Numbered from the stretch's first letter, positions 7,470 to 44,187 are shown. The stretch: DNA of 47,389 nt from Escherichia coli (GCF_036507355.1 NZ_AP027879.1); one strand, 5' to 3'. The notes: a model not told the origin generated them from the sequence alone. Program-made: numbers and translations.

Positions 7470-7484
7470 GTTGGAGTCATTACC

Positions 7485-22031: not shown

Positions 22032-22058
22032 CCGACGACTGGTAGCAGGCCCGCTCCG

Positions 22059-22364: not shown

Positions 22365-22369
22365 CGGGC

Positions 22370-24193: not shown

Positions 24194-24447
24194 GGCACTG
24201 TTGCAAATAGTCGGTGGTGATAAACTTATCATCCCCTTTTGCTGATGGAGCTGCACATGAACCCATTCAAAGGCCGGCATTTTCAGCGTGACATCATTCT
24301 GTGGGCCGTACGCTGGTACTGCAAATACGGCATCAGTTACCGTGAGCTGCAGGAGATGCTGGCTGAACGCGGAGTGAATGTCGATCACTCCACGATTTAC
24401 CGCTGGGTTCAGCGTTATGCGCCTGAAATGGAAAAACGGCTGCGCTG
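24194..24447 (+). mobile_element. IS26 fragment (first about 254 bp including IRL and tnp 5' end)
   Basis: Identical to the IS26 left end; interrupted by inverted complete IS26 copy c. Confidence 0.8.
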
Positions 24448-24448
24448 G

Positions 24449-25268: not shown

Positions 25269-25600
25269 CCGGTAACTATCAACTTGAGTCCAACCCGGAA
25301 AGACACGACAAAACGCCACTGGCAGCAGCCATTAGTAACAGGAGTGCACGAGAAGATAGATTAAGAGGTCTTGAAGTAGAGGCCTGACTGCGGCTACACT
25401 GAAAGAACAGTTTTGGTAATGGCGGTCTCGTGAACCCTGTTACCGGGTTAAGCAGTTCCCCAACTGACTTAACCTTCGAACAAACCGCCTCCCCAGGCGG
25501 TTTTTTCGTTTACAGAGCAAGAGATTACGATTCATTGAAAAGGATCTCAAGAAGATCCTTTGTAGATTACTATCAATTAATCTTCCGAACATGACACCAG
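25269..25600 (+). other. ColE1-type replicon remnant (RNAI/RNAII control region); origin proper deleted by IS26
   Basis: Colinear with the pBR322-type ori region from CGGTAACTATC..TTGAGTCCAACCCGG through AAAGGATCTCAAGAAGATCCTTTG. Confidence 0.5.
25407..25506 (+). ncRNA. RNAI-like antisense RNA of the ColE1-type remnant
   Basis: Position matches RNAI in ColE1-type origins; ends in hairpin plus T-run CCGCCTCCCCAGGCGGTTTTTT. Confidence 0.4.
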
Positions 25601-25846
25601 TCACTGTTGATTACGGTTAAACCGCTCCGTAACAGGTTTCCCTCGTATTGGTGACTTGCAGCACCAAAGAAGCAAAAAAGATAAATATATCTACTTATTG
25701 AGAGATGATATATTTATTTCCAAAATGCTACAGATACATCATCATGAAACGGATCACCGCAAACAGGTTACTCGCCTGGGGATTCCCTTTCGACCCGAGC
25801 ATCCGTATGATACTCATGCTCGATTATTATTATTATAGAAGCCCCC

Positions 25847-26662
25847 ATGAATAAATCGCTCATCATTTTCGGCATCGTCAACATAACCTCGGACAGTTTC
25901 TCCGATGGAGGCCGGTATCTGGCGCCAGACGCAGCCATTGCGCAGGCGCGTAAGCTGATGGCCGAGGGGGCAGATGTGATCGACCTCGGTCCGGCATCCA
26001 GCAATCCCGACGCCGCGCCTGTTTCGTCCGACACAGAAATCGCGCGTATCGCGCCGGTGCTGGACGCGCTCAAGGCAGATGGCATTCCCGTCTCGCTCGA
26101 CAGTTATCAACCCGCGACGCAAGCCTATGCCTTGTCGCGTGGTGTGGCCTATCTCAATGATATTCGCGGTTTTCCAGACGCTGCGTTCTATCCGCAATTG
26201 GCGAAATCATCTGCCAAACTCGTCGTTATGCATTCGGTGCAAGACGGGCAGGCAGATCGGCGCGAGGCACCCGCTGGCGACATCATGGATCACATTGCGG
26301 CGTTCTTTGACGCGCGCATCGCGGCGCTGACGGGTGCCGGTATCAAACGCAACCGCCTTGTCCTTGATCCCGGCATGGGGTTTTTTCTGGGGGCTGCTCC
26401 CGAAACCTCGCTCTCGGTGCTGGCGCGGTTCGATGAATTGCGGCTGCGCTTCGATTTGCCGGTGCTTCTGTCTGTTTCGCGCAAATCCTTTCTGCGCGCG
26501 CTCACAGGCCGTGGTCCGGGGGATGTCGGGGCCGCGACACTCGCTGCAGAGCTTGCCGCCGCCGCAGGTGGAGCTGACTTCATCCGCACACACGAGCCGC
26601 GCCCCTTGCGCGACGGGCTGGCGGTATTGGCGGCGCTGAAAGAAACCGCAAGAATTCGTTAA
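25847..26662 (+). CDS. sul2: Sulfonamide-resistant dihydropteroate synthase Sul2
   Basis: 271 aa starting MNKSLIIFGIVNITSDSFSDGG. Confidence 0.95.
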   Translation: MNKSLIIFGIVNITSDSFSDGGRYLAPDAAIAQARKLMAEGADVIDLGPASSNPDAAPVSSDTEIARIAPVLDALKADGIPVSLDSYQPATQAYALSRGVAYLNDIRGFPDAAFYPQLAKSSAKLVVMHSVQDGQADRREAPAGDIMDHIAAFFDARIAALTGAGIKRNRLVLDPGMGFFLGAAPETSLSVLARFDELRLRFDLPVLLSVSRKSFLRALTGRGPGDVGAATLAAELAAAAGGADFIRTHEPRPLRDGLAVLAALKETARIR

Positions 26663-26722
26663 CTGCACATTCGGGATATTTCTCTATATTCGCGCTTCAT
26701 CAGAAAACTGAAGGAACCTCCA

Positions 26723-27526
26723 TTGAATCGAACTAATATTTTTTTTGGTAAATCGCATTCTGACTGGTTGCCTGTCAGAGGCGGAGAATCTGGTGATTTT
26801 GTTTTTCGACGTGGTGACGGGCATGCCTTCGCGAAAATCGCACCTGCTTCCCGCCGCGGTGAGCTCGCTGGAGAGCGTGACCGCCTCATTTGGCTCAAAG
26901 GTCGAGGTGTGGCTTGCCCCGAGGTCATCAACTGGCAGGAGGAACAGGAGGGTGCATGCTTGGTGATAACGGCAATTCCGGGAGTACCGGCGGCTGATCT
27001 GTCTGGAGCGGATTTGCTCAAAGCGTGGCCGTCAATGGGGCAGCAACTTGGCGCTGTTCACAGCCTATCGGTTGATCAATGTCCGTTTGAGCGCAGGCTG
27101 TCGCGAATGTTCGGACGCGCCGTTGATGTGGTGTCCCGCAATGCCGTCAATCCCGACTTCTTACCGGACGAGGACAAGAGTACGCCGCAGCTCGATCTTT
27201 TGGCTCGTGTCGAACGAGAGCTACCGGTGCGGCTCGACCAAGAGCGCACCGATATGGTTGTTTGCCATGGTGATCCCTGCATGCCGAACTTCATGGTGGA
27301 CCCTAAAACTCTTCAATGCACGGGTCTGATCGACCTTGGGCGGCTCGGAACAGCAGATCGCTATGCCGATTTGGCACTCATGATTGCTAACGCCGAAGAG
27401 AACTGGGCAGCGCCAGATGAAGCAGAGCGCGCCTTCGCTGTCCTATTCAATGTATTGGGGATCGAAGCCCCCGACCGCGAACGCCTTGCCTTCTATCTGC
27501 GATTGGACCCTCTGACTTGGGGTTGA
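26723..27526 (+). CDS. strA: Aminoglycoside 3''-phosphotransferase APH(3'')-Ib
   Basis: 267 aa; classic sul2-strA-strB order. Confidence 0.95.
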   Translation: MNRTNIFFGKSHSDWLPVRGGESGDFVFRRGDGHAFAKIAPASRRGELAGERDRLIWLKGRGVACPEVINWQEEQEGACLVITAIPGVPAADLSGADLLKAWPSMGQQLGAVHSLSVDQCPFERRLSRMFGRAVDVVSRNAVNPDFLPDEDKSTPQLDLLARVERELPVRLDQERTDMVVCHGDPCMPNFMVDPKTLQCTGLIDLGRLGTADRYADLALMIANAEENWAAPDEAERAFAVLFNVLGIEAPDRERLAFYLRLDPLTWG

Positions 27527-28362
27527 TGTTCATGCCGCCTGTTTTTCCTGCTCATTGGCACGTTTCGCAACCTGTTCTCATTGCGGACACCTTTTCCAGC
27601 CTCGTTTGGAAAGTTTCATTGCCAGACGGGACTCCTGCAATCGTCAAGGGATTGAAACCTATAAAAGACATTGCTGATGAACTGCGCGGGGCCGACTATC
27701 TGGTATGGCGCAATGGGAGGGGAGCAGTCCGGTTGCTCGGTCGTGAGAACAATCTGATGTTGCTCGAATATGCCGGGGAGCGAATGCTCTCTCACATCGT
27801 TGCCGAGCACGGCGACTACCAGGCGACCGAAATTGCAGCGGAACTAATGGCGAAGCTGTATGCCGCATCTGAGGAACCCCTGCCTTCTGCCCTTCTCCCG
27901 ATCCGGGATCGCTTTGCAGCTTTGTTTCAGCGGGCGCGCGATGATCAAAACGCAGGTTGTCAAACTGACTACGTCCACGCGGCGATTATAGCCGATCAAA
28001 TGATGAGCAATGCCTCGGAACTGCGTGGGCTACATGGCGATCTGCATCATGAAAACATCATGTTCTCCAGTCGCGGCTGGCTGGTGATAGATCCCGTCGG
28101 TCTGGTCGGTGAAGTGGGCTTTGGCGCCGCCAATATGTTCTACGATCCGGCTGACAGAGACGACCTTTGTCTCGATCCTAGACGCATTGCACAGATGGCG
28201 GACGCATTCTCTCGTGCGCTGGACGTCGATCCGCGTCGCCTGCTCGACCAGGCGTACGCTTATGGGTGCCTTTCCGCAGCTTGGAACGCGGATGGAGAAG
28301 AGGAGCAACGCGATCTAGCTATCGCGGCCGCGATCAAGCAGGTGCGACAGACGTCATACTAG
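27526..28362 (+). CDS. strB: Aminoglycoside 6-phosphotransferase APH(6)-Id
   Basis: 278 aa from MFMPPVFPAHW; 1-bp overlap with the strA stop. Confidence 0.95.
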   Translation: MFMPPVFPAHWHVSQPVLIADTFSSLVWKVSLPDGTPAIVKGLKPIKDIADELRGADYLVWRNGRGAVRLLGRENNLMLLEYAGERMLSHIVAEHGDYQATEIAAELMAKLYAASEEPLPSALLPIRDRFAALFQRARDDQNAGCQTDYVHAAIIADQMMSNASELRGLHGDLHHENIMFSSRGWLVIDPVGLVGEVGFGAANMFYDPADRDDLCLDPRRIAQMADAFSRALDVDPRRLLDQAYAYGCLSAAWNADGEEEQRDLAIAAAIKQVRQTSY

Positions 28363-28387
28363 ATATCAAGCGACTTCTCCTATCCCC

Positions 28388-28468
28388 TGGGAACACATCA
28401 ATCTCACCGGAGAATATCGCTGGCCAAAGCCTTAGCGTAGGATTCCGCCCCTTCCCGCAAACGACCCC
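28388..28468. repeat. Tn5393-type 81-bp terminal inverted repeat downstream of strB
   Basis: Reverse complement begins GGGGTCGTTTGCGGGAAGGGG. Confidence 0.5.
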
Positions 28469-28717
28469 TTTCTGGCGCGTTTGCAGGGCCATAGACGGCC
28501 GCCAGCCCAGCGGCGAGGGCAACCAGCCCGGTGAGCGTCGGAAAGGCGCTGGAAGCCCCGTAGCGACGCGGAGAGGGGCGAGACAAGCCAAGGGCGCAGG
28601 CTCGATGCGCAGCACGACATAGCCGGTTCTCGCAAGGACGAGAATTTCCCTGCGGTGCCCCTCAAGTGTCAATGAAAGTTTCCAACGCGAGCCATTCGCG
28701 AGAGCCTTGAGTCCACG
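28469..28717. other. Short non-coding segment joining the strB/IR end to the tet module; origin uncertain (contains GCCCCTCAAGTGTCA)
   Basis: No ORF; ends exactly where tetR-upstream sequence begins without a Tn1721 IR. Confidence 0.3.
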
Positions 28718-29032
28718 CTAGATCTATCTCATCTGCGCAAGGCAGAACGTGAAGACGGCCGCCCTGGACCTCGCCCGCGAGCGCCAGGCGCACGAGGCCG
28801 GCGCGCGGACCCGCGCCACGGCCCACGAGCGGACGCCGCAGCAGGAGCGCCAGAAGGCCGCCAGAGAGGCCGAGCGCGGCCGTGAGGCTTGGACGCTAGG
28901 GCAGGGCATGAAAAAGCCCGTAGCGGGCTGCTACGGGCGTCTGACGCGGTGGAAAGGGGGAGGGGATGTTGTCTACATGGCTCTGCTGTAGTGAGTGGGT
29001 TGCGCTCCGGCAGCGGTCCTGAGCGGTCCTGA

Positions 29033-29683
29033 TCAATCGTCACCCTTTCTCGGTCCTTCAACGTTCCTGACAACGAGCCTCCTTTTCGCCAATCCATCGA
29101 CAATCACCGCGAGTCCCTGCTCGAACGCTGCGTCCGGACGGGCTTCGTCGAAGGCGTCTATCGCGGCCCGCAACAGCGGCGAGAGCGGAGCCTGTTCAAC
29201 GGTGCCGCCGCGCTCGCCGGCATCGCTGTCGCCGGCCTGCTCCTCAAGCACGGCCCCAACAGTGAAGTAGCTGATTGTCATCAGCGCATTGACGGCGTCC
29301 CCGGCCGAAAAACCCGCCTCGCAGAGGAAGCGAAGCTGCGCGTCGGCCGTTTCCATCTGCGGTGCGCCCGGTCGCGTGCCGGAATGGATGCGCGCGCCAT
29401 CGCGGTAGGCGAGCAGCGCCTGCCTGAAGCTGCGGGCATTCCCGATCAGAAATGAGCGCCAGTCGTCGTCGGCTCTCGGCACCGAATGCGTATGATTCTC
29501 CGCCAGCATGGCTTCGGCCAGTGCGTCGAGCAGCGCCCGCTTGTTCCTGAAGTGCCAGTAAAGCGCCGGCTGCTGAACCCCCAACCGTTCCGCCAGTTTG
29601 CGTGTCGTCAGACCGTCTACGCCGACCTCGTTCAACAGGTCCAGGGCGGCACGGATCACTGTATTCGGCTGCAACTTTGTCAT
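29033..29683 (-). CDS. tetR: Tetracycline repressor TetR, class A (variant copy)
   Basis: 216 aa from MTKLQPNTVIRAALDLL; differs from the second copy at two residues. Confidence 0.95.
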   Translation of the reverse strand: MTKLQPNTVIRAALDLLNEVGVDGLTTRKLAERLGVQQPALYWHFRNKRALLDALAEAMLAENHTHSVPRADDDWRSFLIGNARSFRQALLAYRDGARIHSGTRPGAPQMETADAQLRFLCEAGFSAGDAVNALMTISYFTVGAVLEEQAGDSDAGERGGTVEQAPLSPLLRAAIDAFDEARPDAAFEQGLAVIVDGLAKRRLVVRNVEGPRKGDD

Positions 29684-29692
29684 GCTTGACAC

Positions 29693-29788
29693 TTTATCAC
29701 TGATAAATATAATATGTCCACCAACTTATCAGTGATAAAGAATCCGCGCGTTCAATCGGACCAGCGGAGGCTGGTCCGGAGGCCAGAC
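29693..29788. promoter_or_regulatory. tetR/tetA divergent promoter region with tet operator palindromes
   Basis: ACTTTATCACTGATAAA and CTTATCAGTGATAAAG between the divergent genes. Confidence 0.7.
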
Positions 29789-30988
29789 GTGAAACCCAAC
29801 AGACCCCTGATCGTAATTCTGAGCACTGTCGCGCTCGACGCTGTCGGCATCGGCCTGATTATGCCGGTGCTGCCGGGCCTCCTGCGCGATCTGGTTCACT
29901 CGAACGACGTCGCCGCCCACTATGGCATTCTGCTGGCGCTGTATGCGTTGATGCAATTTGCCTGCGCACCTGTGCTGGGTGCGCTGTCGGATCGTTTCGG
30001 GCGGCGGCCGGTCTTGCTCGTCTCGCTGGCCGGCGCTGCTGTCGACTACGCCATCATGGCGACGGCGCCTTTCCTTTGGGTTCTCTATATCGGGCGGATC
30101 GTGGCCGGCATCACCGGGGCGACTGGGGCGGTAGCCGGCGCTTATATTGCCGATATCACTGATGGCGATGAGCGCGCGCGGCACTTCGGCTTCATGAGCG
30201 CCTGTTTCGGGTTCGGGATGGTCGCGGGACCTGTGCTCGGTGGGCTGATGGGCGGTTTCTCCCCCCACGCTCCGTTCTTCGCCGCGGCAGCCTTGAACGG
30301 CCTCAATTTCCTGACGGGCTGTTTCCTTTTGCCGGAGTCGCACAAAGGCGAACGCCGGCCGTTACGCCGGGAGGCTCTCAACCCGCTCGCTTCGTTCCGG
30401 TGGGCCCGGGGCATGACCGTCGTCGCCGCCCTGATGGCGGTCTTCTTCATCATGCAACTTGTCGGACAGGTGCCGGCCGCGCTTTGGGTCATTTTCGGCG
30501 AGGATCGCTTTCACTGGGACGCGACCACGATCGGCATTTCGCTTGCCGCATTTGGCATTCTGCATTCACTCGCCCAGGCAATGATCACCGGCCCTGTAGC
30601 CGCCCGGCTCGGCGAAAGGCGGGCACTCATGCTCGGAATGATTGCCGACGGCACAGGCTACATCCTGCTTGCCTTCGCGACACGGGGATGGATGGCGTTC
30701 CCGATCATGGTCCTGCTTGCTTCGGGTGGCATCGGAATGCCGGCGCTGCAAGCAATGTTGTCCAGGCAGGTGGATGAGGAACGTCAGGGGCAGCTGCAAG
30801 GCTCACTGGCGGCGCTCACCAGCCTGACCTCGATCGTCGGACCCCTCCTCTTCACGGCGATCTATGCGGCTTCTATAACAACGTGGAACGGGTGGGCATG
30901 GATTGCAGGCGCTGCCCTCTACTTGCTCTGCCTGCCGGCGCTGCGTCGCGGGCTTTGGAGCGGCGCAGGGCAACGAGCCGATCGCTGA
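29789..30988 (+). CDS. tetA: Tetracycline efflux MFS pump TetA, class A (variant copy)
   Basis: 399 aa from GTG at VKPNRPLIVILSTVALDAVGIG; three aa differences from the second copy. Confidence 0.95.
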   Translation: MKPNRPLIVILSTVALDAVGIGLIMPVLPGLLRDLVHSNDVAAHYGILLALYALMQFACAPVLGALSDRFGRRPVLLVSLAGAAVDYAIMATAPFLWVLYIGRIVAGITGATGAVAGAYIADITDGDERARHFGFMSACFGFGMVAGPVLGGLMGGFSPHAPFFAAAALNGLNFLTGCFLLPESHKGERRPLRREALNPLASFRWARGMTVVAALMAVFFIMQLVGQVPAALWVIFGEDRFHWDATTIGISLAAFGILHSLAQAMITGPVAARLGERRALMLGMIADGTGYILLAFATRGWMAFPIMVLLASGGIGMPALQAMLSRQVDEERQGQLQGSLAALTSLTSIVGPLLFTAIYAASITTWNGWAWIAGAALYLLCLPALRRGLWSGAGQRADR

Positions 30989-31359
30989 TAGAGGTTTATA
31001 GCGGCTTCGTTCCCTTCCGCAACCGTCAGCATGATCTGCTCCACATGCTCGCGGCCATAGTCTATCACCGCCCGCAGCAGCATACCGGCGACCCCTCGGC
31101 CTCGCTGTTCGGGCTCCACGAAAACGCCGGACAGATGCGCCTTGTGAGCGTCCTTGGGGCCGTCCTCCTGTTTGAAGACCGACAGCCCAATGATCTCGCC
31201 GTCGATGTAGGCGCCGAATGCCACGGCATCTCGCAACCGTTCAGCGAACGCCTCCATGGGCTTTTTCTCCTCGTGCTCGTAAACGGACCCGAACATCTCT
31301 GGAGCTTTCTTCAGGGCCGACAATCGGATCTCGCCGAAATGCCTGCCGTTGCTAGACAT
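30989..31359 (-). pseudogene. GNAT-family N-acetyltransferase, 3'-truncated at the tetA boundary
   Basis: First about 123 codons GNAT-like (QRGRGVAGMLLRAVIDYGRE); frame continues into antisense tetA. Confidence 0.5.
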
Positions 31360-31364
31360 TGCCA

Positions 31365-31847
31365 GCCAGTGCCCGTCACTCCCGTACTAACTGTCACGAA
31401 CCCCTGCAATAACTGTCACGCCCCCCTGCAATAACTGTCACGAACCCCTGCAATAACTGTCACGCCCCCAAACCTGCAAACCCAGCAGGGGCGGGGGCTG
31501 GCGGGGTGTTGGAAAAATCCATCCATGATTATCTAAGAATAATCCACTAGGCGCGGTTATCAGCGCCCTTGTGGGGCGCTGCTGCCCTTGCCCAATATGC
31601 CCGGCCAGAGGCCGGATAGCTGGTCTATTCGCTGCGCTAGGCTACACACCGCCCCACCGCTGCGCGGCAGGGGGAAAGGCGGGCAAAGCCCGCTAAACCC
31701 CACACCAAACCCCGCAGAAATACGCTGGAGCGCTTTTAGCCGCTTTAGCGGCCTTTCCCCCTACCCGAAGGGTGGGGGCGCGTGTGCAGCCCCGCAGGGC
31801 CTGTCTCGGTCGATCATTCAGCCCGGCTCATCCTTCTGGCGTGGCGG
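31365..31847. other. IncQ1 (RSF1010-type) oriV fragment with direct iterons, GC-rich and AT-rich segments
   Basis: Iterons CTGTCACGAACCCCTGCAATAA at about 31386-31470, then GC-rich block and AT-rich CCATCCATGATTATCTAAGAATAATCC; identification from recalled RSF1010 sequence. Confidence 0.55.
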
Positions 31848-32770
31848 ATGATAACGGCCAGCATGGCGTCCAGAACGTCCAATGCATCATCCAGCGCCAG
31901 CGTTTCCCATGCAAGGACAAAGGCAACCAGAACCGCCATCCTTTTCTGCGGTGACATCCTGGCAATATTGAACACCGAAGTCATACCAGCATAACGTGCG
32001 AGATTTTTCAGGCGCACAGCCGGGAGTGTACTCAGGTTTTCAGCATGCAGGCCAAAATCGTTCAGAGTTTTCCAGCGTTCAATTGCTTCATTAAACGCCG
32101 GACCACTGATGGTCACAGGGCCCTTTTTCAGTGATTCCAGTAAAGACAGGCGGCTGCAATCAGTTGGCCCCAGCAGCATCTCCAGCTGTGAACGCTGTTC
32201 GGCTGACGGTATCAGTGCCAGTTTGTTCCACAGGCGCAACGTCGCCTTTTCCCTTACCTCTGAAATCAACCGGGTCAGCGTAGTGGCTCCGGGGAGAATA
32301 ATACGATGTTGCATAAGCCACCCTGTCGCCAGATCGAAAAGCAGGCCAGGACGTTCGTTGCTTATCCAGCTCCGGGTATATAAAAGACGGGTAAGGCGAA
32401 ATGTCCAGGGCCAGGCAAATTCACGATACTGATAGTGCTGACGTATCAGCGCTGCATGCTCACGGCGGGTATTTTCCCTCTGACCGTATTCTGCAAGAAC
32501 GGTGATATCACGAATCCCGAGCTGTCTGGCGGTAAAATGCCGGACGCCGGAAGGAATATGATTCATATCGGTGAGGAAGGTGCCCAGAAAACGGACACAT
32601 CCAATTTGCAGGGCAATGCCCAGACGGTTGTGATCACCTCTGCTTTTTCCGATAAATTCCTTGTCTGCTTCATCAAGGTGAAAATATCGTGCCAGCTGAA
32701 GCTCATCCGGTTCACCGGTGAATCTGCCATAGCTTTCAGTCTGCTCAGTGGTCAGAAAGTCAACGGGCAT
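31848..32770 (-). pseudogene. tnpA: Tn2/Tn3 transposase TnpA, N-terminal about 307 codons only (3'-truncated)
   Basis: MPVDFLTTEQTESYGRFTGEPDELQLARYFHL...; frame runs into oriV-fragment sequence. Confidence 0.85.
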
Positions 32771-33491
<721 letters not shown>

Positions 33492-33603
33492 TACGCCTAT
33501 TTTTATAGGTTAATGTCATGATAATAATGGTTTCTTAGACGTCAGGTGGCACTTTTCGGGGAAATGTGCGCGGAACCCCTATTTGTTTATTTTTCTAAAT
33601 ACA

Positions 33604-33632
33604 TTCAAATATGTATCCGCTCATGAGACAAT
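33604..33632 (+). promoter_or_regulatory. blaTEM P3-type promoter (-35 TTCAAA, 17-bp spacer, -10 GACAAT)
   Basis: Hexamers located about 40 bp upstream of the blaTEM start. Confidence 0.5.
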
Positions 33633-33661
33633 AACCCTGGTAAATGCTTCAATAATATTGA

Positions 33662-34534
<873 letters not shown>

Positions 34535-34643
34535 CTGTCAGACCAAGTTTACTCATATATACTTTAGATTGATTTAAAACTTCATTTTTAATTTAAAAGG
34601 ATCTAGGTGAAGATCCTTTTTGATAATCTCATGACCAAAATCC

Positions 34644-34681
34644 CTTAACGTGAGTTTTCGTTCCACTGAGCGTCAGACCCC
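34644..34681. repeat. Tn3/Tn2 right 38-bp inverted repeat
   Basis: CTTAACGTGAGTTTTCGTTCCACTGAGCGTCAGACCCC. Confidence 0.85.
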
Positions 34682-34791
34682 TATGATTACCCTCTTAGTA
34701 ACAGTTCGAAAGATCCAGACCTAAGTCAAGTACGCCAACACAACTTCAGAGCAAGTATAGCATATTCATTTAGAAAGCTAAAAAAATAAAA

Positions 34792-35583
34792 CTAACCTAG
34801 GGCTTTGGATATTTTCAAGGCATCTGATAAAGACTTAACATCATGGGTGCGGAGATAATCTGCACCTTTTTTGTATGCATACATTTCTGCTGCAAGAGTT
34901 GGTGCTAAACGAGATTTCACATCGGTTCCAGTTATTTTACCTAAGAATGATTTCCGTGACACTGCAATCATTACTTGCAAATTAAAAGCTTCTTGAATTT
35001 CAGGGAAACGCTTCAAAACAAGAATAGATGTTTCTGGATTAGAGCCTAAAAAGAAGCCCATACCCGGATCAAGAATAATTCGTTCACGCTTTACACCAGC
35101 CTCAACTAAAGCAGCAATTCTTTCTTTAAAAAATTCCATCATGGAAGTAAAAACCTCTTCCGGATTCGTTTCAACTTTAGTAGCTGCACCAATTCGCTGA
35201 ACGGAGTGCATCAACACAAGTTTGCAATCTGACTTTGCCAAGCCTGAATAAATCTCAGGATAAGGAAAACCTTGAATATCATTAATAAAATCAACCTTTT
35301 GTTCTATGCAAAAACTCTGAACCTCAGGTTTAAATGTATCAACAGAAATAGAAATGCCTTTTTCTTTTAAAGCCTTAATGACAGGTTTGAGTCTTTTGAT
35401 TTCTTCCACAACGCCCACTTCAGTTGTATCAGGATTACTGGAAGCGGCTCCCAAATCAATCACATCTGCTCCATCTTCAACCAAATGCAGAGCATGCTCA
35501 ATTGCCTTATCTGTATCTAAATAAAGTCCTCCATCGGAAAAACTATCGGTGGTTATATTTACGATTCCAAAAATCTTGCTCAT
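34792..35583 (-). CDS. sul3: Sulfonamide-resistant dihydropteroate synthase Sul3
   Basis: 263 aa, AT-rich, MSKIFGIVNITTDSFSDGG; flanked by SDR gene, MFS fragment and IS26. Confidence 0.85.
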   Translation of the reverse strand: MSKIFGIVNITTDSFSDGGLYLDTDKAIEHALHLVEDGADVIDLGAASSNPDTTEVGVVEEIKRLKPVIKALKEKGISISVDTFKPEVQSFCIEQKVDFINDIQGFPYPEIYSGLAKSDCKLVLMHSVQRIGAATKVETNPEEVFTSMMEFFKERIAALVEAGVKRERIILDPGMGFFLGSNPETSILVLKRFPEIQEAFNLQVMIAVSRKSFLGKITGTDVKSRLAPTLAAEMYAYKKGADYLRTHDVKSLSDALKISKALG

Positions 35584-36051
35584 ATCATTTTGCTTTGATT
35601 ACAAAAGTAGCATTTATCTTAATTGACTAATTATCACTTACGCAAATTGACACATTTTCCCTATCTTTGCAGCCTAATTTTTTTGTTTTAATTCATTATG
35701 AAAACTGATAGGAACTGTCATTTCGAGTTTTTCGCGGTTTTGGGTCAAAATTCGGTTTTTTCCCCGAACTACGACTGTTTTCGCACCCCGAACAACTAAT
35801 CCAATCAGAATTTTCCGGCAACGCCGACTCCAAGAAGTGTAATTCCAGTCTATTTCTGCCGTCAACCCCTGATTCGCGTTAATGCGACAAAGCTCAAACA
35901 CATAACTCCCCCACGAAGCCATATAAACTCCGATTTCGAGGTGTTATCCTGTTCCGCATAAACTTCGTTTTTGGGTATTATACCTACACCAAAGCAAGAA
36001 GATTATGGGTCCAAACTTCATTTGTATATTTTGCAAACAAATATCTGCCTG

Positions 36052-36297
36052 TCATATCTGTCGGAGTGTGGTGATACTCCTTTGCATTAAAAATGCGCTG
36101 ATAAAAGGTAGTTCAGCAAAAGGCGAAACGCCAATAAATATATCTATAACCGGTTTCGCCCGTTGATTGGGTATCGCCGTGCTTCCGATATGTTCAATGG
36201 CTACGGCATGAGAACCGAAAAAATGGAGCAATTTTATTTTCTCTTCTTCAAAATTCTTTGTCCAATCCGGGTTATATTCCATAATTTCAATTTTCAT
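36052..36297 (-). pseudogene. GrpB-like (UPF0157) N-terminal fragment
   Basis: 81-aa ORF with GSTAIP motif; much shorter than full-length family members. Confidence 0.3.
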
Positions 36298-36334
36298 GAT
36301 AGTTTCGTCCTTGCCTCAAAAACCATGTTTGGTA

Positions 36335-37198
36335 TTATACTCCATATCTCTCCGGTGCAGGAATAGCCTTTTCTGATGCACGGCTAACAGCTTCCCATTC
36401 TTCCCAGGTAGCCATCCGTGCTTTTAAGGTATCCATCGCCAAATCGTATACCATGCTGCCAAGGATAAGCCTCAAAGGCGGATTATTGCTGGCTACTAAT
36501 TTCATAAGGGCTTCCGCTGCCAAGGAAGGATCACTATCGACCGAATCTTCGGAATACTGTTTCGCCAGCTCATCGCGCAGTGTACCGTATGAATCTAATG
36601 GATTGCTGTAACTCATCGAAGTGTATAAATCTGTCCAATATCCTCCTGGTTCCACCATAGTGAGTTTCACTCCGAAATGTTCCGCTTCTTTTGCTAAGGC
36701 TTCACTCATTCCTTCCAGCGCAAATTTACTTGCACTGTAAATACCAGACATCGGACCCGAGATAATAGCGCCAATGCTTGTAATCTGTATGATATGTCCA
36801 GAACGCTGCGACCTCAAATAGGGCATCACTGCCTGACAAACCCAAAGAGCTCCAAAAAAGTTTGTGTCCATTAGTTTCCGAGCATCGGATTCGTTTAGTT
36901 CTTCAATCATACCCATAGTCATGATACCCGCATTATTAACAACAATATCAAGCCTACCGAAATGTTTAACTGCTGTTTCAACCGTAGAAAAAACAGCCTC
37001 CCTATCTGTAACATCGAGGTTTAATGGCAGTAAGCTCTCTTGATATGTTTCTTCTAGCTTCGCCAAATTATCGATAGTCCTTGCAACTGCAACAACTTTA
37101 TCCCCGGCTTTCAAGGCGGCGCATGTAAAAGCATAGCCAAGCCCCTTGCTTGCTCCGGTAATAAACCATACTCTTTTATTTTCGCTATTAGGTATCAT
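36335..37198 (-). CDS. Short-chain dehydrogenase/reductase (SDR)
   Basis: 287 aa; TGASKGLG Rossmann motif and YSASK catalytic motif. Confidence 0.75.
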   Translation of the reverse strand: MIPNSENKRVWFITGASKGLGYAFTCAALKAGDKVVAVARTIDNLAKLEETYQESLLPLNLDVTDREAVFSTVETAVKHFGRLDIVVNNAGIMTMGMIEELNESDARKLMDTNFFGALWVCQAVMPYLRSQRSGHIIQITSIGAIISGPMSGIYSASKFALEGMSEALAKEAEHFGVKLTMVEPGGYWTDLYTSMSYSNPLDSYGTLRDELAKQYSEDSVDSDPSLAAEALMKLVASNNPPLRLILGSMVYDLAMDTLKARMATWEEWEAVSRASEKAIPAPERYGV

Positions 37199-37326
37199 AG
37201 ATATTCTCCTTTAGGCTATTATAGAAAGATTATTATAAGCGAAATTAATACCGTTAAACGCCATGAGCCCGACAATTTTGAGCACTTTGTTTTGTACTCC
37301 CAGAAGCTCACTACTACAAATTATCA

Positions 37327-37595
37327 TCAACCCGGTCCTTTTTTCAGTCCACTTGCGGTTTTCATTGTTACTTTGTCATAGCGTCGTGTCAGAATGCGGC
37401 AGAGAACAGCGTTTACTATCAACGCAACACCAGACCAGAAAAACCATGTATTAACACCTATAACCTCAACAACCGGACCTGCAACAAGTAAGCCTATCGG
37501 CATAGAAAGAGTCATGGCGGTCATCAAAAGGGAAAACACCTTGCCCATCATTTCAGGGGCAATGCTTTCTTGAACATAAGCCATAACAGGAACAT
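37327..37595 (-). pseudogene. mefB: MFS efflux pump C-terminal fragment (likely mef(B)), 5'-truncated by IS26
   Basis: Hydrophobic TM-like C-terminus; frame opens at the IS26 boundary. Confidence 0.45.
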
Positions 37596-38415
37596 GGCAC
37601 TGTTGCAAAGTTAGCGATGAGGCAGCCTTTTGTCTTATTCAAAGGCCTTACATTTCAAAAACTCTGCTTACCAGGCGCATTTCGCCCAGGGGATCACCAT
37701 AATAAAATGCTGAGGCCTGGCCTTTGCGTAGTGCACGCATCACCTCAATACCTTTGATGGTGGCGTAAGCCGTCTTCATGGATTTAAATCCCAGCGTGGC
37801 GCCGATTATCCGTTTCAGTTTGCCATGATCGCATTCAATCACGTTGTTCCGGTACTTAATCTGTCGGTGTTCAACGTCAGACGGGCACCGGCCTTCGCGT
37901 TTGAGCAGAGCAAGCGCGCGACCATAGGCGGGCGCTTTATCCGTGTTGATGAATCGCGGGATCTGCCACTTCTTCACGTTGTTGAGGATTTTACCCAGAA
38001 ACCGGTATGCAGCTTTGCTGTTACGACGGGAGGAGAGATAAAAATCGACAGTGCGGCCCCGGCTGTCGACGGCCCGGTACAGATACGCCCAGCGGCCATT
38101 GACCTTCACGTAGGTTTCATCCATGTGCCACGGGCAAAGATCGGAAGGGTTACGCCAGTACCAGCGCAGCCGTTTTTCCATTTCAGGCGCATAACGCTGA
38201 ACCCAGCGGTAAATCGTGGAGTGATCGACATTCACTCCGCGTTCAGCCAGCATCTCCTGCAGCTCACGGTAACTGATGCCGTATTTGCAGTACCAGCGTA
38301 CGGCCCACAGAATGATGTCACGCTGAAAATGCCGGCCTTTGAATGGGTTCATGTGCAGCTCCATCAGCAAAAGGGGATGATAAGTTTATCACCACCGACT
38401 ATTTGCAACAGTGCC
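37596..38415 (-). mobile_element. IS26, complete (copy d)
   Basis: 14-bp IRs, 820 bp. Confidence 0.95.
37648..38352 (-). CDS. tnp26: IS26 transposase Tnp26, G at position 184
   Basis: [10 protein letters not shown]. Confidence 0.95.
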   Translation of the reverse strand: MNPFKGRHFQRDIILWAVRWYCKYGISYRELQEMLAERGVNVDHSTIYRWVQRYAPEMEKRLRWYWRNPSDLCPWHMDETYVKVNGRWAYLYRAVDSRGRTVDFYLSSRRNSKAAYRFLGKILNNVKKWQIPRFINTDKAPAYGRALALLKREGRCPSDVEHRQIKYRNNVIECDHGKLKRIIGATLGFKSMKTAYATIKGIEVMRALRKGQASAFYYGDPLGEMRLVSRVFEM

Positions 38416-38598
38416 GTCCTGCGAATATGTGAGTTTTGACCTAATGAGCCACAAAAACTCATTTTCGCCCACGATAATTTTTCTACTTCCTTTCTTTGGA
38501 ATGCTCATTTCAATATTCACATAACGTCGCTATCAATCGCGGAAAAGGCGTAGTGCGCGAAGCGAACGAAGCTTTTTGCCGTCGATTGCATAGCTTTG
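38416..38598 (-). other. Region downstream of the dfrA cassette, expected to hold its attC; truncated by IS26
   Basis: Position between dfrA stop and IS26; attC not delimited. Confidence 0.3.
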
Positions 38599-39081
38599 TT
38601 AACCCTTTTTCCAAATTTGATAGCAATAGTTAATGTTTGAAGTAAAGTGTTGCTCAAAAACAACTTCGAAGGTATTTGGAATACTCGGGAAGAAAACATC
38701 CCCCTCTGGCTCGATGTCGATCGTCGATAAGTGGAGCGTAGAGGCCATGGGTAATGTTTCTCGGTAAATTTCTCCGCCACCAGACACTATAACGTGACCG
38801 GTGAATTCAGCTAGCCTGTCCATGGCCTCTTCGATTGACTGAAATACAACTACATTGTCATCATTTGATGTCCAACCTGAGCGGGTAACGACCGCGTATT
38901 TCCTATTGGGGAGTGCGCCCATAGATTCAAACGTCTTGCGACCCACCAGAAGCCACTGATTGTAGGTCAATGCTTTAAAAAGTAGCTGCTCCCCTTTCGC
39001 GGACCAGGGTATGTCTGGACCGCAACCAATCACGCCGTTTTTCGCTTTCGCAGCCATCAATGATACTTTCAAGGTTCTCAT
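38599..39081 (-). CDS. dfrA14: Trimethoprim-resistant dihydrofolate reductase DfrA (dfrA14/dfrA5 group)
   Basis: 160-aa ORF; type B DHFR; allele assignment from recalled sequence is tentative. Confidence 0.8.
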
Positions 39082-39227
39082 CCTGGGTTAACTTTGTTTT
39101 AGGGCGACTGCCCTGCTGCGTAACATCGTTGCTGCTCCATAACATCAAACATCGACCCACGGCGTAACGCGCTTGCTGCTTGGATGCCCGAGGCATAGAC
39201 TGTACAAAAAAACAGTCATAACAAGCC
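39082..39227. promoter_or_regulatory. attI1 recombination site region of a class 1 integron
   Basis: GCCCTAAAACAAAGTTAACC between intI1 start and the first cassette. Confidence 0.6.
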
Positions 39228-40233
39228 ATGAAAACCGCCACTGCGCCGTTACCACCGCTGCGTTCGGTCAAGGTTCTGGACCAGTTGCGTGAGCGCATAC
39301 GCTACTTGCATTACAGTTTACGAACCGAACAGGCTTATGTCCACTGGGTTCGTGCCTTCATCCGTTTCCACGGTGTGCGTCACCCGGCAACCTTGGGCAG
39401 CAGCGAAGTCGAGGCATTTCTGTCCTGGCTGGCGAACGAGCGCAAGGTTTCGGTCTCCACGCATCGTCAGGCATTGGCGGCCTTGCTGTTCTTCTACGGC
39501 AAGGTGCTGTGCACGGATCTGCCCTGGCTTCAGGAGATCGGAAGACCTCGGCCGTCGCGGCGCTTGCCGGTGGTGCTGACCCCGGATGAAGTGGTTCGCA
39601 TCCTCGGTTTTCTGGAAGGCGAGCATCGTTTGTTCGCCCAGCTTCTGTATGGAACGGGCATGCGGATCAGTGAGGGTTTGCAACTGCGGGTCAAGGATCT
39701 GGATTTCGATCACGGCACGATCATCGTGCGGGAGGGCAAGGGCTCCAAGGATCGGGCCTTGATGTTACCCGAGAGCTTGGCACCCAGCCTGCGCGAGCAG
39801 CTGTCGCGTGCACGGGCATGGTGGCTGAAGGACCAGGCCGAGGGCCGCAGCGGCGTTGCGCTTCCCGACGCCCTTGAGCGGAAGTATCCGCGCGCCGGGC
39901 ATTCCTGGCCGTGGTTCTGGGTTTTTGCGCAGCACACGCATTCGACCGATCCACGGAGCGGTGTCGTGCGTCGCCATCACATGTATGACCAGACCTTTCA
40001 GCGCGCCTTCAAACGTGCCGTAGAACAAGCAGGCATCACGAAGCCCGCCACACCGCACACCCTCCGCCACTCGTTCGCGACGGCCTTGCTCCGCAGCGGT
40101 TACGACATTCGAACCGTGCAGGATCTGCTCGGCCATTCCGACGTCTCTACGACGATGATTTACACGCATGTGCTGAAAGTTGGCGGTGCCGGAGTGCGCT
40201 CACCGCTTGATGCGCTGCCGCCCCTCACTAGTG
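39228..40233 (+). CDS. intI1: Class 1 integron integrase IntI1, last two codons and stop replaced by IS26
   Basis: [27 protein letters not shown]...; native frame ends at LDALPPLTS where IS26 begins. Confidence 0.9.
39315..39343 (-). promoter_or_regulatory. Integron cassette promoter Pc, PcH1-type (-35 TGGACA, -10 TAAACT)
   Basis: Hexamers on the cassette strand inside the intI1 5' coding region, 17-bp spacing. Confidence 0.6.
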
Positions 40234-41053
40234 GGCACTGTTGCAAAGTTAGCGATGAGGCAGCCTTTTGTCTTATTCAAAGGCCTTACATTTCAAAAAC
40301 TCTGCTTACCAGGCGCATTTCGCCCAGGGGATCACCATAATAAAATGCTGAGGCCTGGCCTTTGCGTAGTGCACGCATCACCTCAATACCTTTGATGGTG
40401 GCGTAAGCCGTCTTCATGGATTTAAATCCCAGCGTGGCGCCGATTATCCGTTTCAGTTTGCCATGATCGCATTCAATCACGTTGTTCCGGTACTTAATCT
40501 GTCGGTGTTCAACGTCAGACGGGCACCGGCCTTCGCGTTTGAGCAGAGCAAGCGCGCGACCATAGGCGGGCGCTTTATCCGTGTTGATGAATCGCGGGAT
40601 CTGCCACTTCTTCACGTTGTTGAGGATTTTACCCAGAAACCGGTATGCAGCTTTGCTGTTACGACGGGAGGAGAGATAAAAATCGACAGTGCGGCCCCGG
40701 CTGTCGACGGCCCGGTACAGATACGCCCAGCGGCCATTGACCTTCACGTAGGTTTCATCCATGTGCCACGGGCAAAGATCGGAAGGGTTACGCCAGTACC
40801 AGCGCAGCCGTTTTTCCATTTCAGGCGCATAACGCTGAACCCAGCGGTAAATCGTGGAGTGATCGACATTCACTCCGCGTTCAGCCAGCATCTCCTGCAG
40901 CTCACGGTAACTGATGCCGTATTTGCAGTACCAGCGTACGGCCCACAGAATGATGTCACGCTGAAAATGCCGGCCTTTGAATGGGTTCATGTGCAGCTCC
41001 ATCAGCAAAAGGGGATGATAAGTTTATCACCACCGACTATTTGCAACAGTGCC
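40234..41053 (-). mobile_element. IS26, complete (copy e)
   Basis: 14-bp IRs, 820 bp. Confidence 0.95.
40286..40990 (-). CDS. tnp26: IS26 transposase Tnp26, G at position 184
   Basis: Same protein as copy d. Confidence 0.95.
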
Positions 41054-41869: not shown

Positions 41870-41902
41870 CGTACGATTTTTTCCGAATTCTGCGGGCTCC
41901 CC
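41865..41902. repeat. Tn1721 38-bp inverted repeat (internal IR preceding the tet module)
   Basis: Reverse complement GGGGAGCCCGCAGAATTCGGAAAAAATCGTACGCTAAG. Confidence 0.8.
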
Positions 41903-42200
41903 TATCTCATCTGCGCAAGGCAGAACGTGAAGACGGCCGCCCTGGACCTCGCCCGCGAGCGCCAGGCGCACGAGGCCGGCGCGCGGACCCGCGCCACGGC
42001 CCACGAGCGGACGCCGCAGCAGGAGCGCCAGAAGGCCGCCAGAGAGGCCGAGCGCGGCCGTGAGGCTTGGACGCTAGGGCAGGGCATGAAAAAGCCCGTA
42101 GCGGGCTGCTACGGGCGTCTGACGCGGTGGAAAGGGGGAGGGGATGTTGTCTACATGGCTCTGCTGTAGTGAGTGGGTTGCGCTCCGGCAGCGGTCCTGA

Positions 42201-42851
42201 TCAATCGTCACCCTTTCTCGGTCCTTCAACGTTCCTGACAACGAGCCTCCTTTTCGCCAATCCATCGACAATCACCGCGAGTCCCTGCTCGAACGCTGCG
42301 TCCGGATCGGCTTCGTCGAAGGCGTCTATCGCGGCCCGCAACAGCGGCGAGAGCGGAGCCTGTTCAACGGTGCCGCCGCGCTCGCCGGCATCGCTGTCGC
42401 CGGCCTGCTCCTCAAGCACGGCCCCAACAGTGAAGTAGCTGATTGTCATCAGCGCATTGACGGCGTCCCCGGCCGAAAAACCCGCCTCGCAGAGGAAGCG
42501 AAGCTGCGCGTCGGCCGTTTCCATCTGCGGTGCGCCCGGTCGCGTGCCGGCATGGATGCGCGCGCCATCGCGGTAGGCGAGCAGCGCCTGCCTGAAGCTG
42601 CGGGCATTCCCGATCAGAAATGAGCGCCAGTCGTCGTCGGCTCTCGGCACCGAATGCGTATGATTCTCCGCCAGCATGGCTTCGGCCAGTGCGTCGAGCA
42701 GCGCCCGCTTGTTCCTGAAGTGCCAGTAAAGCGCCGGCTGCTGAACCCCCAACCGTTCCGCCAGTTTGCGTGTCGTCAGACCGTCTACGCCGACCTCGTT
42801 CAACAGGTCCAGGGCGGCACGGATCACTGTATTCGGCTGCAACTTTGTCAT
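42201..42851 (-). CDS. tetR: Tetracycline repressor TetR, class A (Tn1721-type copy)
   Basis: 216 aa from MTKLQ. Confidence 0.95.
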   Translation of the reverse strand: MTKLQPNTVIRAALDLLNEVGVDGLTTRKLAERLGVQQPALYWHFRNKRALLDALAEAMLAENHTHSVPRADDDWRSFLIGNARSFRQALLAYRDGARIHAGTRPGAPQMETADAQLRFLCEAGFSAGDAVNALMTISYFTVGAVLEEQAGDSDAGERGGTVEQAPLSPLLRAAIDAFDEADPDAAFEQGLAVIVDGLAKRRLVVRNVEGPRKGDD

Positions 42852-42860
42852 GCTTGACAC

Positions 42861-42956
42861 TTTATCACTGATAAACATAATATGTCCACCAACTTATCAG
42901 TGATAAAGAATCCGCGCGTTCAATCGGACCAGCGGAGGCTGGTCCGGAGGCCAGAC
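42861..42956. promoter_or_regulatory. tetR/tetA divergent promoter and operators
   Basis: Same operator palindromes as in copy 1. Confidence 0.7.
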
Positions 42957-44156
42957 GTGAAACCCAACAGACCCCTGATCGTAATTCTGAGCACTGTCGC
43001 GCTCGACGCTGTCGGCATCGGCCTGATTATGCCGGTGCTGCCGGGCCTCCTGCGCGATCTGGTTCACTCGAACGACGTCACCGCCCACTATGGCATTCTG
43101 CTGGCGCTGTATGCGTTGATGCAATTTGCCTGCGCACCTGTGCTGGGCGCGCTGTCGGATCGTTTCGGGCGGCGGCCGGTCTTGCTCGTCTCGCTGGCCG
43201 GCGCTGCTGTCGACTACGCCATCATGGCGACGACGCCTTTCCTTTGGGTTCTCTATATCGGGCGGATCGTGGCCGGCATCACCGGGGCGACTGGGGCGGT
43301 AGCCGGCGCTTATATTGCCGATATCACTGATGGCGATGAGCGCGCGCGGCACTTCGGCTTCATGAGCGCCTGTTTCGGGTTCGGGATGGTCGCGGGACCT
43401 GTGCTCGGTGGGCTGATGGGCGGTTTCTCCCCCCACGCTCCGTTCTTCGCCGCGGCAGCCTTGAACGGCCTCAATTTCCTGACGGGCTGTTTCCTTTTGC
43501 CGGAGTCGCACAAAGGCGAACGCCGGCCGTTACGCCGGGAGGCTCTCAACCCGCTCGCTTCGTTCCGGTGGGCCCGGGGCATGACCGTCGTCGCCGCCCT
43601 GATGGCGGTCTTCTTCATCATGCAACTTGTCGGACAGGTGCCGGCCGCGCTTTGGGTCATTTTCGGCGAGGATCGCTTTCACTGGGACGCGACCACGATC
43701 GGCATTTCGCTTGCCGCATTTGGCATTCTGCATTCACTCGCCCAGGCAATGATCACCGGCCCTGTAGCCGCCCGGCTCGGCGAAAGGCGGGCACTCATGC
43801 TCGGAATGATTGCCGACGGCACAGGCTACATCCTGCTTGCCTTCGCGACACGGGGATGGATGGCGTTCCCGATCATGGTCCTGCTTGCTTCGGGTGGCAT
43901 CGGAATGCCGGCGCTGCAAGCAATGTTGTCCAGGCAGGTGGATGAGGAACGTCAGGGGCAGCTGCAAGGCTCACTGGCGGCGCTCACCAGCCTGACCTCG
44001 ATCGTCGGACCCCTCCTCTTCACGGCGATCTATGCGGCTTCTATAACAACGTGGAACGGGTGGGCATGGATTGCAAGCGCTGCCCTCTACTTGCTCTGCC
44101 TGCCGGCGCTGCGTCGCGGGCTTTGGAGCGGCGCAGGGCAACGAGCCGATCGCTGA
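42957..44156 (+). CDS. tetA: Tetracycline efflux MFS pump TetA, class A (Tn1721-type copy)
   Basis: 399 aa from GTG. Confidence 0.95.
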   Translation: MKPNRPLIVILSTVALDAVGIGLIMPVLPGLLRDLVHSNDVTAHYGILLALYALMQFACAPVLGALSDRFGRRPVLLVSLAGAAVDYAIMATTPFLWVLYIGRIVAGITGATGAVAGAYIADITDGDERARHFGFMSACFGFGMVAGPVLGGLMGGFSPHAPFFAAAALNGLNFLTGCFLLPESHKGERRPLRREALNPLASFRWARGMTVVAALMAVFFIMQLVGQVPAALWVIFGEDRFHWDATTIGISLAAFGILHSLAQAMITGPVAARLGERRALMLGMIADGTGYILLAFATRGWMAFPIMVLLASGGIGMPALQAMLSRQVDEERQGQLQGSLAALTSLTSIVGPLLFTAIYAASITTWNGWAWIASAALYLLCLPALRRGLWSGAGQRADR

Positions 44157-44187
44157 TCGTGGAAACGATAGGCCTATGCCATGCGGG

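Follow-up and report, generated by a model that had tools for sequence, protein, structure and literature searches.

The sul3 module between a Tn2 end and IS26 in Escherichia coli and its probable sources in gut anaerobes

The sul3 module studied here occupies positions 34,682 to 37,595 of a 47,389-nucleotide stretch of Escherichia coli DNA (GCF_036507355.1, NZ_AP027879.1), the whole of which was analyzed and is referred to below as the window. The module lies between the right end of a Tn2 transposon and a copy of IS26. The sul3 gene (34792 to 35583, minus strand) encodes an intact sulfonamide-insensitive dihydropteroate synthase of 263 amino acids, which matched the NCBIfam Sul3 model (NF000296) over its full length (1-263/263) with 613.6 bits (cut-off, 475), was 100% identical to the protein cluster P0001, named Sul3, and is annotated as sul3, at 100%, in the records identical to the window. 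Further along are a 296-bp remnant of the 3' end of an IS91-family element resembling ISEc28 (35703 to 35998, minus strand), a 5' fragment of grpB that is a pseudogene (35998 to 36297, minus strand), an intact gene for an SDR-family oxidoreductase (36335 to 37198, minus strand), and a nonfunctional 3' remnant of mef(B) (37327 to 37595, minus strand). IS26 starts at 37596 (37596 to 38415, minus strand), so that the end of the module at 37595 is exact. The initial annotation, made from the sequence alone, had recognized an AT-rich sul3 gene, a GrpB-like fragment, an intact SDR gene, and a C-terminal MFS fragment cut by IS26, and these identifications stood up: the G+C content of sul3 (37.8%; 40.1% for the module) is below that of the adjoining Tn2 part (48.3%) and of IS26 (52.4%), and the matches of the other genes are given below. 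As with the other Sul enzymes, sulfonamide resistance by sul3 is due to a drug-insensitive dihydropteroate synthase (PMC10328974), and sul3 is the only working resistance determinant of the module. Taken together, the results presented here make it very probable that this is the known sul3 module, a mosaic of three parts whose integron/IS440 side was removed by an event at the Tn2 end.

The right-hand part of Tn2 (31830 to 34681, plus strand) corresponds to Tn2 coordinates 2099 to 4950 and was 99.86% identical by BLAST over 2,852 bp to the complete 4,950-bp Tn2 of plasmid pPS10-3-tetX (L001). It contains a 5' fragment of tnpA, tnpR (ending at 33491), blaTEM-1 (33674 to 34534; the matching records annotate TEM-1), and the right terminal inverted repeat. 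The 38-bp repeat (GGGGTCTGACGCTCAGTGGAACGAAAACTCACGTTAAG) was found as an exact 38/38 match at 34644 to 34681 on the minus strand, with a second exact copy at 17746 to 17783; from dinucleotide-preserving shuffles, 0 matches were expected by chance. The right repeat stops at 34681, position 34682 is the first base outside Tn2, and the join is exact at the outermost base of the repeat. The spacer between the repeat and sul3 is only 110 bp long (34682 to 34791), in agreement with the earlier claim that the Tn2 end lies directly beside the gene. The name Tn2, rather than Tn1 or Tn3, is given by context, since the records say only "Tn3-like" and the equivalent element is called Tn2 in PMC9396132. 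An assembly artifact or chance as the cause of the junction was ruled out, because it is common to 54 independently assembled plasmids.

The spacer holds the last 108 bp of a Bacteroidales gene for an outer-membrane beta-barrel protein (34682 to 34789, plus strand), cut by Tn2. The usual module has about 175 bp more of this remnant before IS440 is reached, and one record of the usual context (L002) annotates there a hypothetical coding sequence (8834 to 9109, equivalent to window positions 34514 to 34789). A three-way alignment of the window with two such records (L002 and L003) placed the breakpoint at ...GTTTGG|CTATGATTACCC..., the module running on as ...GTTTGGCTATGATTACCC... where the window turns to ...GTCAGACCCC|TATGATTACCC. 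Both records have the module extending beyond the Tn2 join; the integron/IS440 side has therefore been replaced by the Tn2 end, as the initial annotation had proposed. The usual linkage to a class 1 integron (sul3-IS440-qacH-cassettes-intI1) is missing from the window, and the other side (sul3-orf-orf-truncated mef(B)-IS26) is present. An intI1-dfrA14 fragment (38599 to 40340) does lie beyond the bounding IS26, not joined to sul3 in the usual way. It belongs to a piece of a class 1 integron (38416 to 41053) in the opposite arrangement, with a dfrA14-type cassette at 38599 to 39081 and intI1 at 39228 to 40340, cut by IS26 at 40234; the same IS26/dfrA14/intI1 layout is found in plasmid pTB31P1.

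The bases outside the two Tn2 repeats do not match, being TTTTA on the left, inside an IS-like sequence next to qnrS1, and TATGA on the right, both in the window and around the complete Tn2 of pPS10-3-tetX; that is, the check for a 5-bp target duplication at the repeats found none. We also searched for the reciprocal junction (...GGCTATGA followed by the left repeat) with a synthetic query made of 105 bp of sul3-downstream DNA ending in TATGA and 107 bp from the Tn2 left repeat inward. At a coverage of at least 80%, it was found in none of the 72,556 plasmids or 5,426 E. coli genomes searched. Repeats are present at both ends of Tn2, but the duplication is not, and neither is an intact tnpA-res-tnpR-bla interior: Tn2 coordinates 1344 to 2098 are absent, and the two Tn2 parts are separated by ca. 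12.7 kb of other resistance DNA. A preserved simple insertion was ruled out by the lack of a duplication together with the failure to find the reciprocal junction in these plasmids and genomes, and for these same reasons we take the present Tn2 copy to be something other than a simple insertion. The position of the join, at the outermost base of the right repeat, argues that it was made by the Tn2 transposase.

Such a structure may have been reached by intramolecular replicative transposition, in which the right end of the qnrS1-linked Tn2 would have hit TATGA in a sul3 module on the same plasmid, with deletion of the interval carrying IS440 and the integron. This would yield a single Tn2 that kept its left flank, gained another right flank, and lacked a duplication, and the precise join at the final base of the right repeat, the unmatched flanks, the absence of the reciprocal junction from the plasmids and E. 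coli genomes searched, and the existence in pPS10-3-tetX of a complete 4,950-bp Tn2 with exactly both flanks are all in line with it. However, no ancestor plasmid with both partners suitably arranged was identified, and Tn3-family elements show transposition immunity, which disfavors targets on molecules already bearing the transposon. We therefore put this route forward tentatively. With the same reserve, we consider a plain insertion at TATGA with a 5-bp duplication, after which homologous or res-site recombination with the qnrS1-linked Tn2 would have swapped the left flank and the IS440/integron half would have been lost. In its favor, Tn2 copies are very abundant (their end is matched by over 5,000 plasmid records), the window and pPS10-3-tetX both keep the left-repeat junction on the qnrS1 side, and hybrid copies with unmatched flanks are a known outcome in the Tn1/2/3 family. 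Yet the expected intermediate, which is the reciprocal junction described above, is absent from the 72,556 plasmids and 5,426 E. coli genomes, while the other junction is present in 54 to 56 records.

As a structure, the Tn2-sul3 arrangement is not new; it is already known and common. A 200-bp junction probe was fully covered in 54 PLSDB plasmids of E. coli, Shigella flexneri, Salmonella, and E. fergusonii, whose sources include chickens or poultry, pigs, cattle, humans, wastewater, and a pangolin. Among 5,426 complete E. coli genomes, the same 200 bp were present in 55, and 486 carry sul3; one exact junction tags about 11% of the sul3 carriers, which gives it a practical use as a lineage marker. 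A 3.2-kb stretch over both boundaries (34500 to 37700) was 100% identical in many plasmids. Behind this shared junction, Tn2 starts on the left at coordinate 1 (pPS10-3-tetX), 2099 (the window), 2951, 2958, or 3008, often cut by IS26, and typical records read IS26-tnpR-blaTEM-sul3-...-IS26. This pattern suggests one or very few origins of the junction and a subsequent spread, for the most part in IS26-bounded segments, with later IS26 cuts trimming the left part of Tn2. The IS26 copy at the right boundary is 100% identical to another copy in the window (IS6-family transposase, 275.5 bits) and directly oriented with those at 12689, 24449, and 40234, as seen by self-BLAST. The copies at 24449 to 25268 and 37596 to 38415 bracket the segment, and other records have IS26 immediately to the left of tnpR; from this direct orientation, present-day mobility would most plausibly be via IS26. 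Phrase searches of the literature for a "Tn2-sul3" or "blaTEM-1-sul3" junction found none, and papers rich in mentions of both sul3 and Tn2 did not describe it.

The closest relatives of Sul3 other than identical proteins, P0002 and P0003, had 90% and 86% amino acid identity. The gene for P0003 is located on a contig of 806 kb, with metG on one side and, on the other, genes for an outer-membrane beta-barrel protein, FKBP, pssA, psd, cdsA, ftsH, and rsfS, and P0002 has the same neighbors. At the DNA level, two of these Bacteroidales loci (L090 and L091) are 83 to 84% identical to the usual module over ca. 1,200 bp (window-equivalent 34504 to 35703). Over all the metG-folP loci compared, sul3 with both flanks was 83 to 85% identical, and by subregion, the identity was 93 to 97% in the upstream intergenic region, 83 to 86% in the gene, and 78 to 83% downstream. 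The outer-membrane gene whose end is found in the spacer is the natural downstream neighbor of folP in these chromosomes, and the neighbor in L090 carries the domain OMP_b-brl_2 (PF13568). On the other side, the native metG-folP intergenic region is preserved (35584 to 35702, minus strand; 93 to 97% identical to L090, L091, L098, and L099), including the metG start codon plus 2 nucleotides (atgaa, 35698 to 35702, plus strand). An exact-pattern scan of metagenomes across the metG start and the intergenic region gave two further contigs with the same locus, both only 84.4% identical to the sul3 segment, and did not reveal the donor species. In all, the metG-folP order is kept in four independent contigs. 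MetG of the 806-kb contig was 89% identical to Paludibacteraceae assemblies and ca. 86% identical to Bacteroides.

The insertion motif GMGFFLG, typical of Sul-type enzymes, is present in the Sul3 of the window (DPGMGFFLGSNPE) and is kept in all the Bacteroidales chromosomal FolP homologues examined. Sensitive enzymes carry GFGFGK at this place in the pABA-site loop. Since the chromosomal homologues already have the Sul-type FF motif, they would be naturally insensitive to sulfonamides. In the intergenic region, TACTTTTG, shortly before the start codon, fits what we take to be the Bacteroides -7 promoter motif, TAnnTTTG; promoter-like matches upstream of sul3 were no more frequent than in shuffled sequence. 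An Rfam scan of 34500 to 37700 gave as its sole match a subthreshold CRISPR repeat inside sul3 (24 bits versus 39), treated as chance.

These data bear on the published origin of sul3. On the basis of phylogeny and G+C content, the gene had been placed with Leptospiraceae folP, at ca. 50 to 52% nucleotide identity and with nothing consistent in the surroundings (Sanchez-Osuna et al. 2019, PMC6335563). If this were correct, the Bacteroidales loci would simply be other members of a broad family. We regard it as very improbable, given the identities of 83 to 86% in the coding region, 93 to 97% in the upstream intergenic region, and 78 to 83% downstream, the metG-folP order in four contigs, and the fact that, of the 120 best Sul3 homologues, none of those with a name is from Leptospira. 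The Bacteroidales loci point to a much closer source lineage than the Leptospiraceae proposal with its ca. 50%. More recently, the direct ancestor of the sul genes and the capture mechanism were described as unidentified (Venkatesan et al. 2023, PMC10328974), and we found no paper linking sul3 to Bacteroidales, Paludibacteraceae, Oscillibacter, or ISEc28 in the literature searched, which took in few subscription journals.

A second sul3-like allele (P0121; L092 to L097), with 81% amino acid identity, was found in 933 collection blocks in mobile elements of gut anaerobes, and its carriers include the chromosome of Victivallales CCUG 44730 and a Bariatricus assembly. Its DNA was 75 to 77% identical both to sul3 and to the Bacteroidales loci, so that it is probably an independent mobilization of a related folP.

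The Bacteroidales homology ends, within 1 to 2 nucleotides, at the IS91-type remnant, and the captured piece starts with the metG start codon; the IS end is accordingly one boundary of the captured chromosomal piece. The remnant, whose terminal sequence is ...CCTATCAGTT, ends as ...GAAATGACAGTTCCTATCAGTT next to the sul3 segment and has no transposase gene left. Five near-identical copies in four contexts end at the same base (...TTCCTATCAGTT) and then diverge, among them those upstream of armA (L084), full-length mef(B) (L085), and sul3. A constant, precise end followed by unrelated flanks is, judging from these sequences, the behavior to be expected of a rolling-circle IS end. The 296 bp are present in ca. 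1,380 plasmid records, including Aeromonas and Pseudomonas plasmids, where they come after a gene annotated "transposase zinc-binding domain-containing protein," and in pSY153-MDR, they lie between an IS91-family transposase gene and armA. The HUH Y2 transposase with the IS91 zinc-binding domain, absent from the window, is present in the full copy of L084; this transposase upstream of the armA-side copy scored 134.5 bits with the NCBIfam IS91 model (cut-off, 125) and matched Pfam Zn_Tnp_IS91 and Y2_Tnp. In the Klebsiella pneumoniae plasmid L085, the order is IS26-truncated transposase-IS end-full mef(B)-SDR-grpB remnant-second IS end-sul3. The 296 bp matched nothing in the Clostridial genomes compared here; a 77% match was found just upstream of mef(B) in a Treponema assembly. 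Within the window, the remnant occurs only once by self-search and does not resemble the ISCR2-type element at 22476 to 23969. An 82-codon open reading frame at 35674 to 35922 is probably not a gene, as it lies mostly inside the noncoding IS91-type end and matched only Pfam DUF6141, with 16.4 bits versus a cut-off of 27.

The remnant might have been incidental, inserted beside an already mobile sul3 and without any part in its capture. IS91-family elements insert at short targets and can land anywhere, no transposase remains in the window, and a promoter-like match in the remnant was no better than chance. Yet the Bacteroidales homology begins within 1 to 2 nucleotides of the IS end and extends for 1.2 kb, two further imported resistance genes, armA and mef(B), adjoin this same end, and L037 has a 79%-related element joined to mef(B) at another point, all of which makes an incidental remnant unlikely. 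Capture by an IS91-type element from a gut Bacteroidales chromosome appears, on sequence evidence, the most likely origin of sul3. The L037 element (5843 to 8344, in a Treponema metagenome-assembled genome [MAG]) is 79% identical to the ISEc28-like one and abuts a mef(B)-SDR pair 99.9% identical to that of L018, a Clostridia MAG, at a junction different from that in Enterobacterial plasmids. From this difference, mef(B) may have been captured more than once in anaerobes by elements of this IS family, with misbinning being possible.

The rest of the module resembles DNA of Clostridia. The grpB fragment retains 300 of 537 bp, with a 1-bp deletion near 36110, and is truncated at the IS91-type remnant; over these 300 bp, it is 99% identical to the intact gene for a 178-amino-acid GrpB in L018, stopping at about 35998. 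Its 81-codon open reading frame (36052 to 36297) covers positions 1 to 59 of the 159 in Pfam GrpB. The SDR protein (287 amino acids; PRK08263, 463.9 bits with a cut-off of 290; Pfam adh_short, 172 bits) was 97% identical in Oscillibacter ruminantium GH1 and several Clostridia/Bacillota MAGs, including L018 (one genome per species), and is apparently a passenger of Clostridial origin with no known resistance role. The mef(B) remnant encodes Mef(B) residues ca. 327 to 409, the last ca. 83 codons, and matched the NCBIfam model at positions 327 to 406 of 409 with 172.8 bits (cut-off, 800). A 1-bp insertion of A at ca. 37362 shifts its frame, the open reading frame running to 37327 instead of stopping at 37346. 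This insertion is absent from the Clostridial relatives and most other sul3 modules; presumably shared by the records matching at 100%, it would be a sublineage marker.

At the DNA level, L018 and L007 were 95.6% identical to window positions 35991 to 37595, and O. ruminantium GH1 was 94.2% identical over 36299 to 37595. All three genes are intact in L018, encoding Mef(B) (923.9 bits, above the cut-off of 800), the SDR, and the 178-amino-acid GrpB. Their neighbors are APH-like, Lnu-like, flavodoxin, Vat, DUF4180, and GNAT genes, near a VirD4-like coupling protein of the CD1115 family, a setting that suggests the cargo region of a conjugative element. The L018 genes upstream of mef(B) (2707 to 5955) include a cluster of candidate resistance genes: APH(9)-like and Lnu(A/AN2)-like genes scored below the curated cut-offs of named families, and the Vat-family streptogramin acetyltransferase was above its family cut-off (345.6 bits versus 300).

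The module is best read as an assembly of three parts. Positions 35998 to 37595 (mef(B)-SDR-grpB) would derive from a resistance cluster of gut Clostridia, probably a conjugative element; positions 35703 to 35998 would be the 3' end of an ISEc28-like rolling-circle element of the IS91 family; and the window-equivalent 34504 to 35702 would be a 1.2-kb piece of a Bacteroidales chromosome with the metG start, the intergenic region, folP (that is, sul3), and the end of the outer-membrane-protein gene. Two successive captures beside the constant end of the IS91-type element would most likely have produced this order, the inner copy then losing its transposase gene, and in less-decayed relatives, a second copy of the same IS end does stand in front of full-length mef(B). 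On balance, we favor the view that sul3 is the chromosomal folP of an unsampled Paludibacteraceae-related lineage of Bacteroidales, and not of Leptospiraceae; that the chromosomal homologues in Bacteroidales would be naturally insensitive; that the 1.2-kb piece, from the metG start codon to the outer-membrane-protein gene, came to lie at the constant end of an ISEc28-type element, which also took mef(B)-SDR-grpB from a Clostridial conjugative element; and that two such units of capture, one after the other, make up the sul3 module, which would have been put together among animal gut anaerobes.

Several points weigh against this account. The nearest natural folP loci are only 83 to 86% identical in the coding region, so that the donor species is unsampled and the statement holds at the family level only. 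The source organisms, except O. ruminantium, are metagenome assemblies, and their labels or bins could be wrong, as in the case of the Treponema L037. Rolling-circle capture is deduced from a shared precise end, and an IS end can also come to adjoin a gene by ordinary insertion. Besides, the classical IS91/ISCR models mobilize DNA beyond the terminator end, and cargo at the origin end needs extra steps, such as circularization or recombination. As for the Tn2 side, the negative result for the reciprocal junction comes from finished genomes only, and the names Tn2, IS440, and ISEc28 were taken from record annotations and papers, not from reference sequences.

Some features of the remaining window deserve mention. 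The Tn2 repeats at 17746 to 34681 are correctly oriented and 16.9 kb apart, enclosing IS26, floR, an ISCR2-type transposase, IS26, sul2-strA-strB, and a tetR/tet(A) segment, and a Tn2 transposase from another copy could in principle move the whole block. The window therefore holds both sul2 and sul3. Two copies of tetR/tet(A), 2.27 kb long and 99.2% identical, are located at 28724 to 30989 and 41902 to 44157, the first cut immediately after the tet(A) stop codon. Between this stop codon and the tnpA fragment of Tn2 (30990 to 31829), we found repeated ...CCTGCAATAACTGTCACG... units and a 146-codon open reading frame without a family match; the repeats presumably resemble the oriV iterons of RSF1010/IncQ. 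Another array, with a 37-bp period and about 14 tandem copies 92 to 98% alike by self-BLAST, is located at 7835 to 8370 and possibly represents an iteron or repeat region of the plasmid.

One of the three main clinical sulfonamide resistance genes, sul3 has a source and a capture mechanism that are regarded as unknown, and because the window keeps the captured chromosomal piece next to the IS91-type end, its origin becomes directly testable. Along similar lines, mef(B) and the two "hypothetical orfs" could be traced to mobile elements of Clostridia, an example of gene flow into Enterobacteriaceae from strict anaerobes of the gut. The junction with Tn2, in turn, physically couples blaTEM-1 and sul3 in IS26-movable segments, often together with qnrS1, tet(A), floR, and tet(X4).

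Among the closest known systems are segments with a truncated Tn2, sul3, the mef(B) remnant, and IS26 in tet(X4)/qnrS1 plasmids. In tet(X4) plasmids, a segment of ca. 14.8 kb with mefB, sul3, dfrA5, four IS26 copies, and an incomplete Tn2 of plasmid-dependent length has been described (PMC9396132). Plasmids pPS10-3-tetX (NZ_CP096838), pTB31P1 (NZ_CP070952), and pYUSHP31-1 (PMC9396132) have the same structure as the window, with 100% identity over 34500 to 37700, including both boundaries, and pTB31P1 also has the downstream IS26-dfrA14-intI1-IS26-tet(A). Only the leftward extent of Tn2 differs, being complete in pPS10-3-tetX, from 2951 in pTB31P1, and from 2099 in the window. The 3' region of the usual sul3 integron (pMCR_W5-6; Reid et al. 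2017, PMC5761274) shares with the window sul3, the 296-bp IS end, the grpB remnant ("orfA/orf1"), the SDR gene ("orfB/orf2"), the mef(B) remnant, and IS26, with identities of 99% or more and no change of order; Reid et al. described it as tnp440, sul3, two hypothetical orfs, and a mefB remnant truncated by IS26 (PMC5761274). The order in pMCR_W5-6 is intI1-dfrA12-orfF-aadA2-cmlA1-aadA1-qacL-IS440 fragment-(sul3, reversed)-grpB-SDR-IS26. In contrast, the window lacks the last ca. 175 bp downstream of sul3, IS440, qacH, and the whole cassette array and has the right repeat of Tn2 instead. At its IS26/mef(B) boundary, ca. 250 bp of mef(B) remain, and 9 bp more are kept in L003, which fits the published "260 bp" variant.

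With regard to the IS91-type end, ISEc28 has been reported upstream of armA (PMC11370241, PMC9494989). The ISEc28-armA junction of Tn1548/Tn6180-type regions has the same near-identical 296 bp and the same terminal base, whereas the window keeps only the terminal 296 bp and has sul3 as cargo; the name ISEc28 for the window remnant is given by context. The transposase of L084 belongs to an IS91-family element outside ISCR clade Ia, as it scored only 102 bits with that NCBIfam model (cut-off, 925) but passed the general IS91 model. Toleman and colleagues reportedly described in 2006 how ISCR1 and ISCR2 capture resistance genes by IS91-like rolling-circle transposition. The genes linked to ISCR1 and ISCR2 likewise show a constant, precise IS end beside varied imported genes, with the other boundary variable and units in series.

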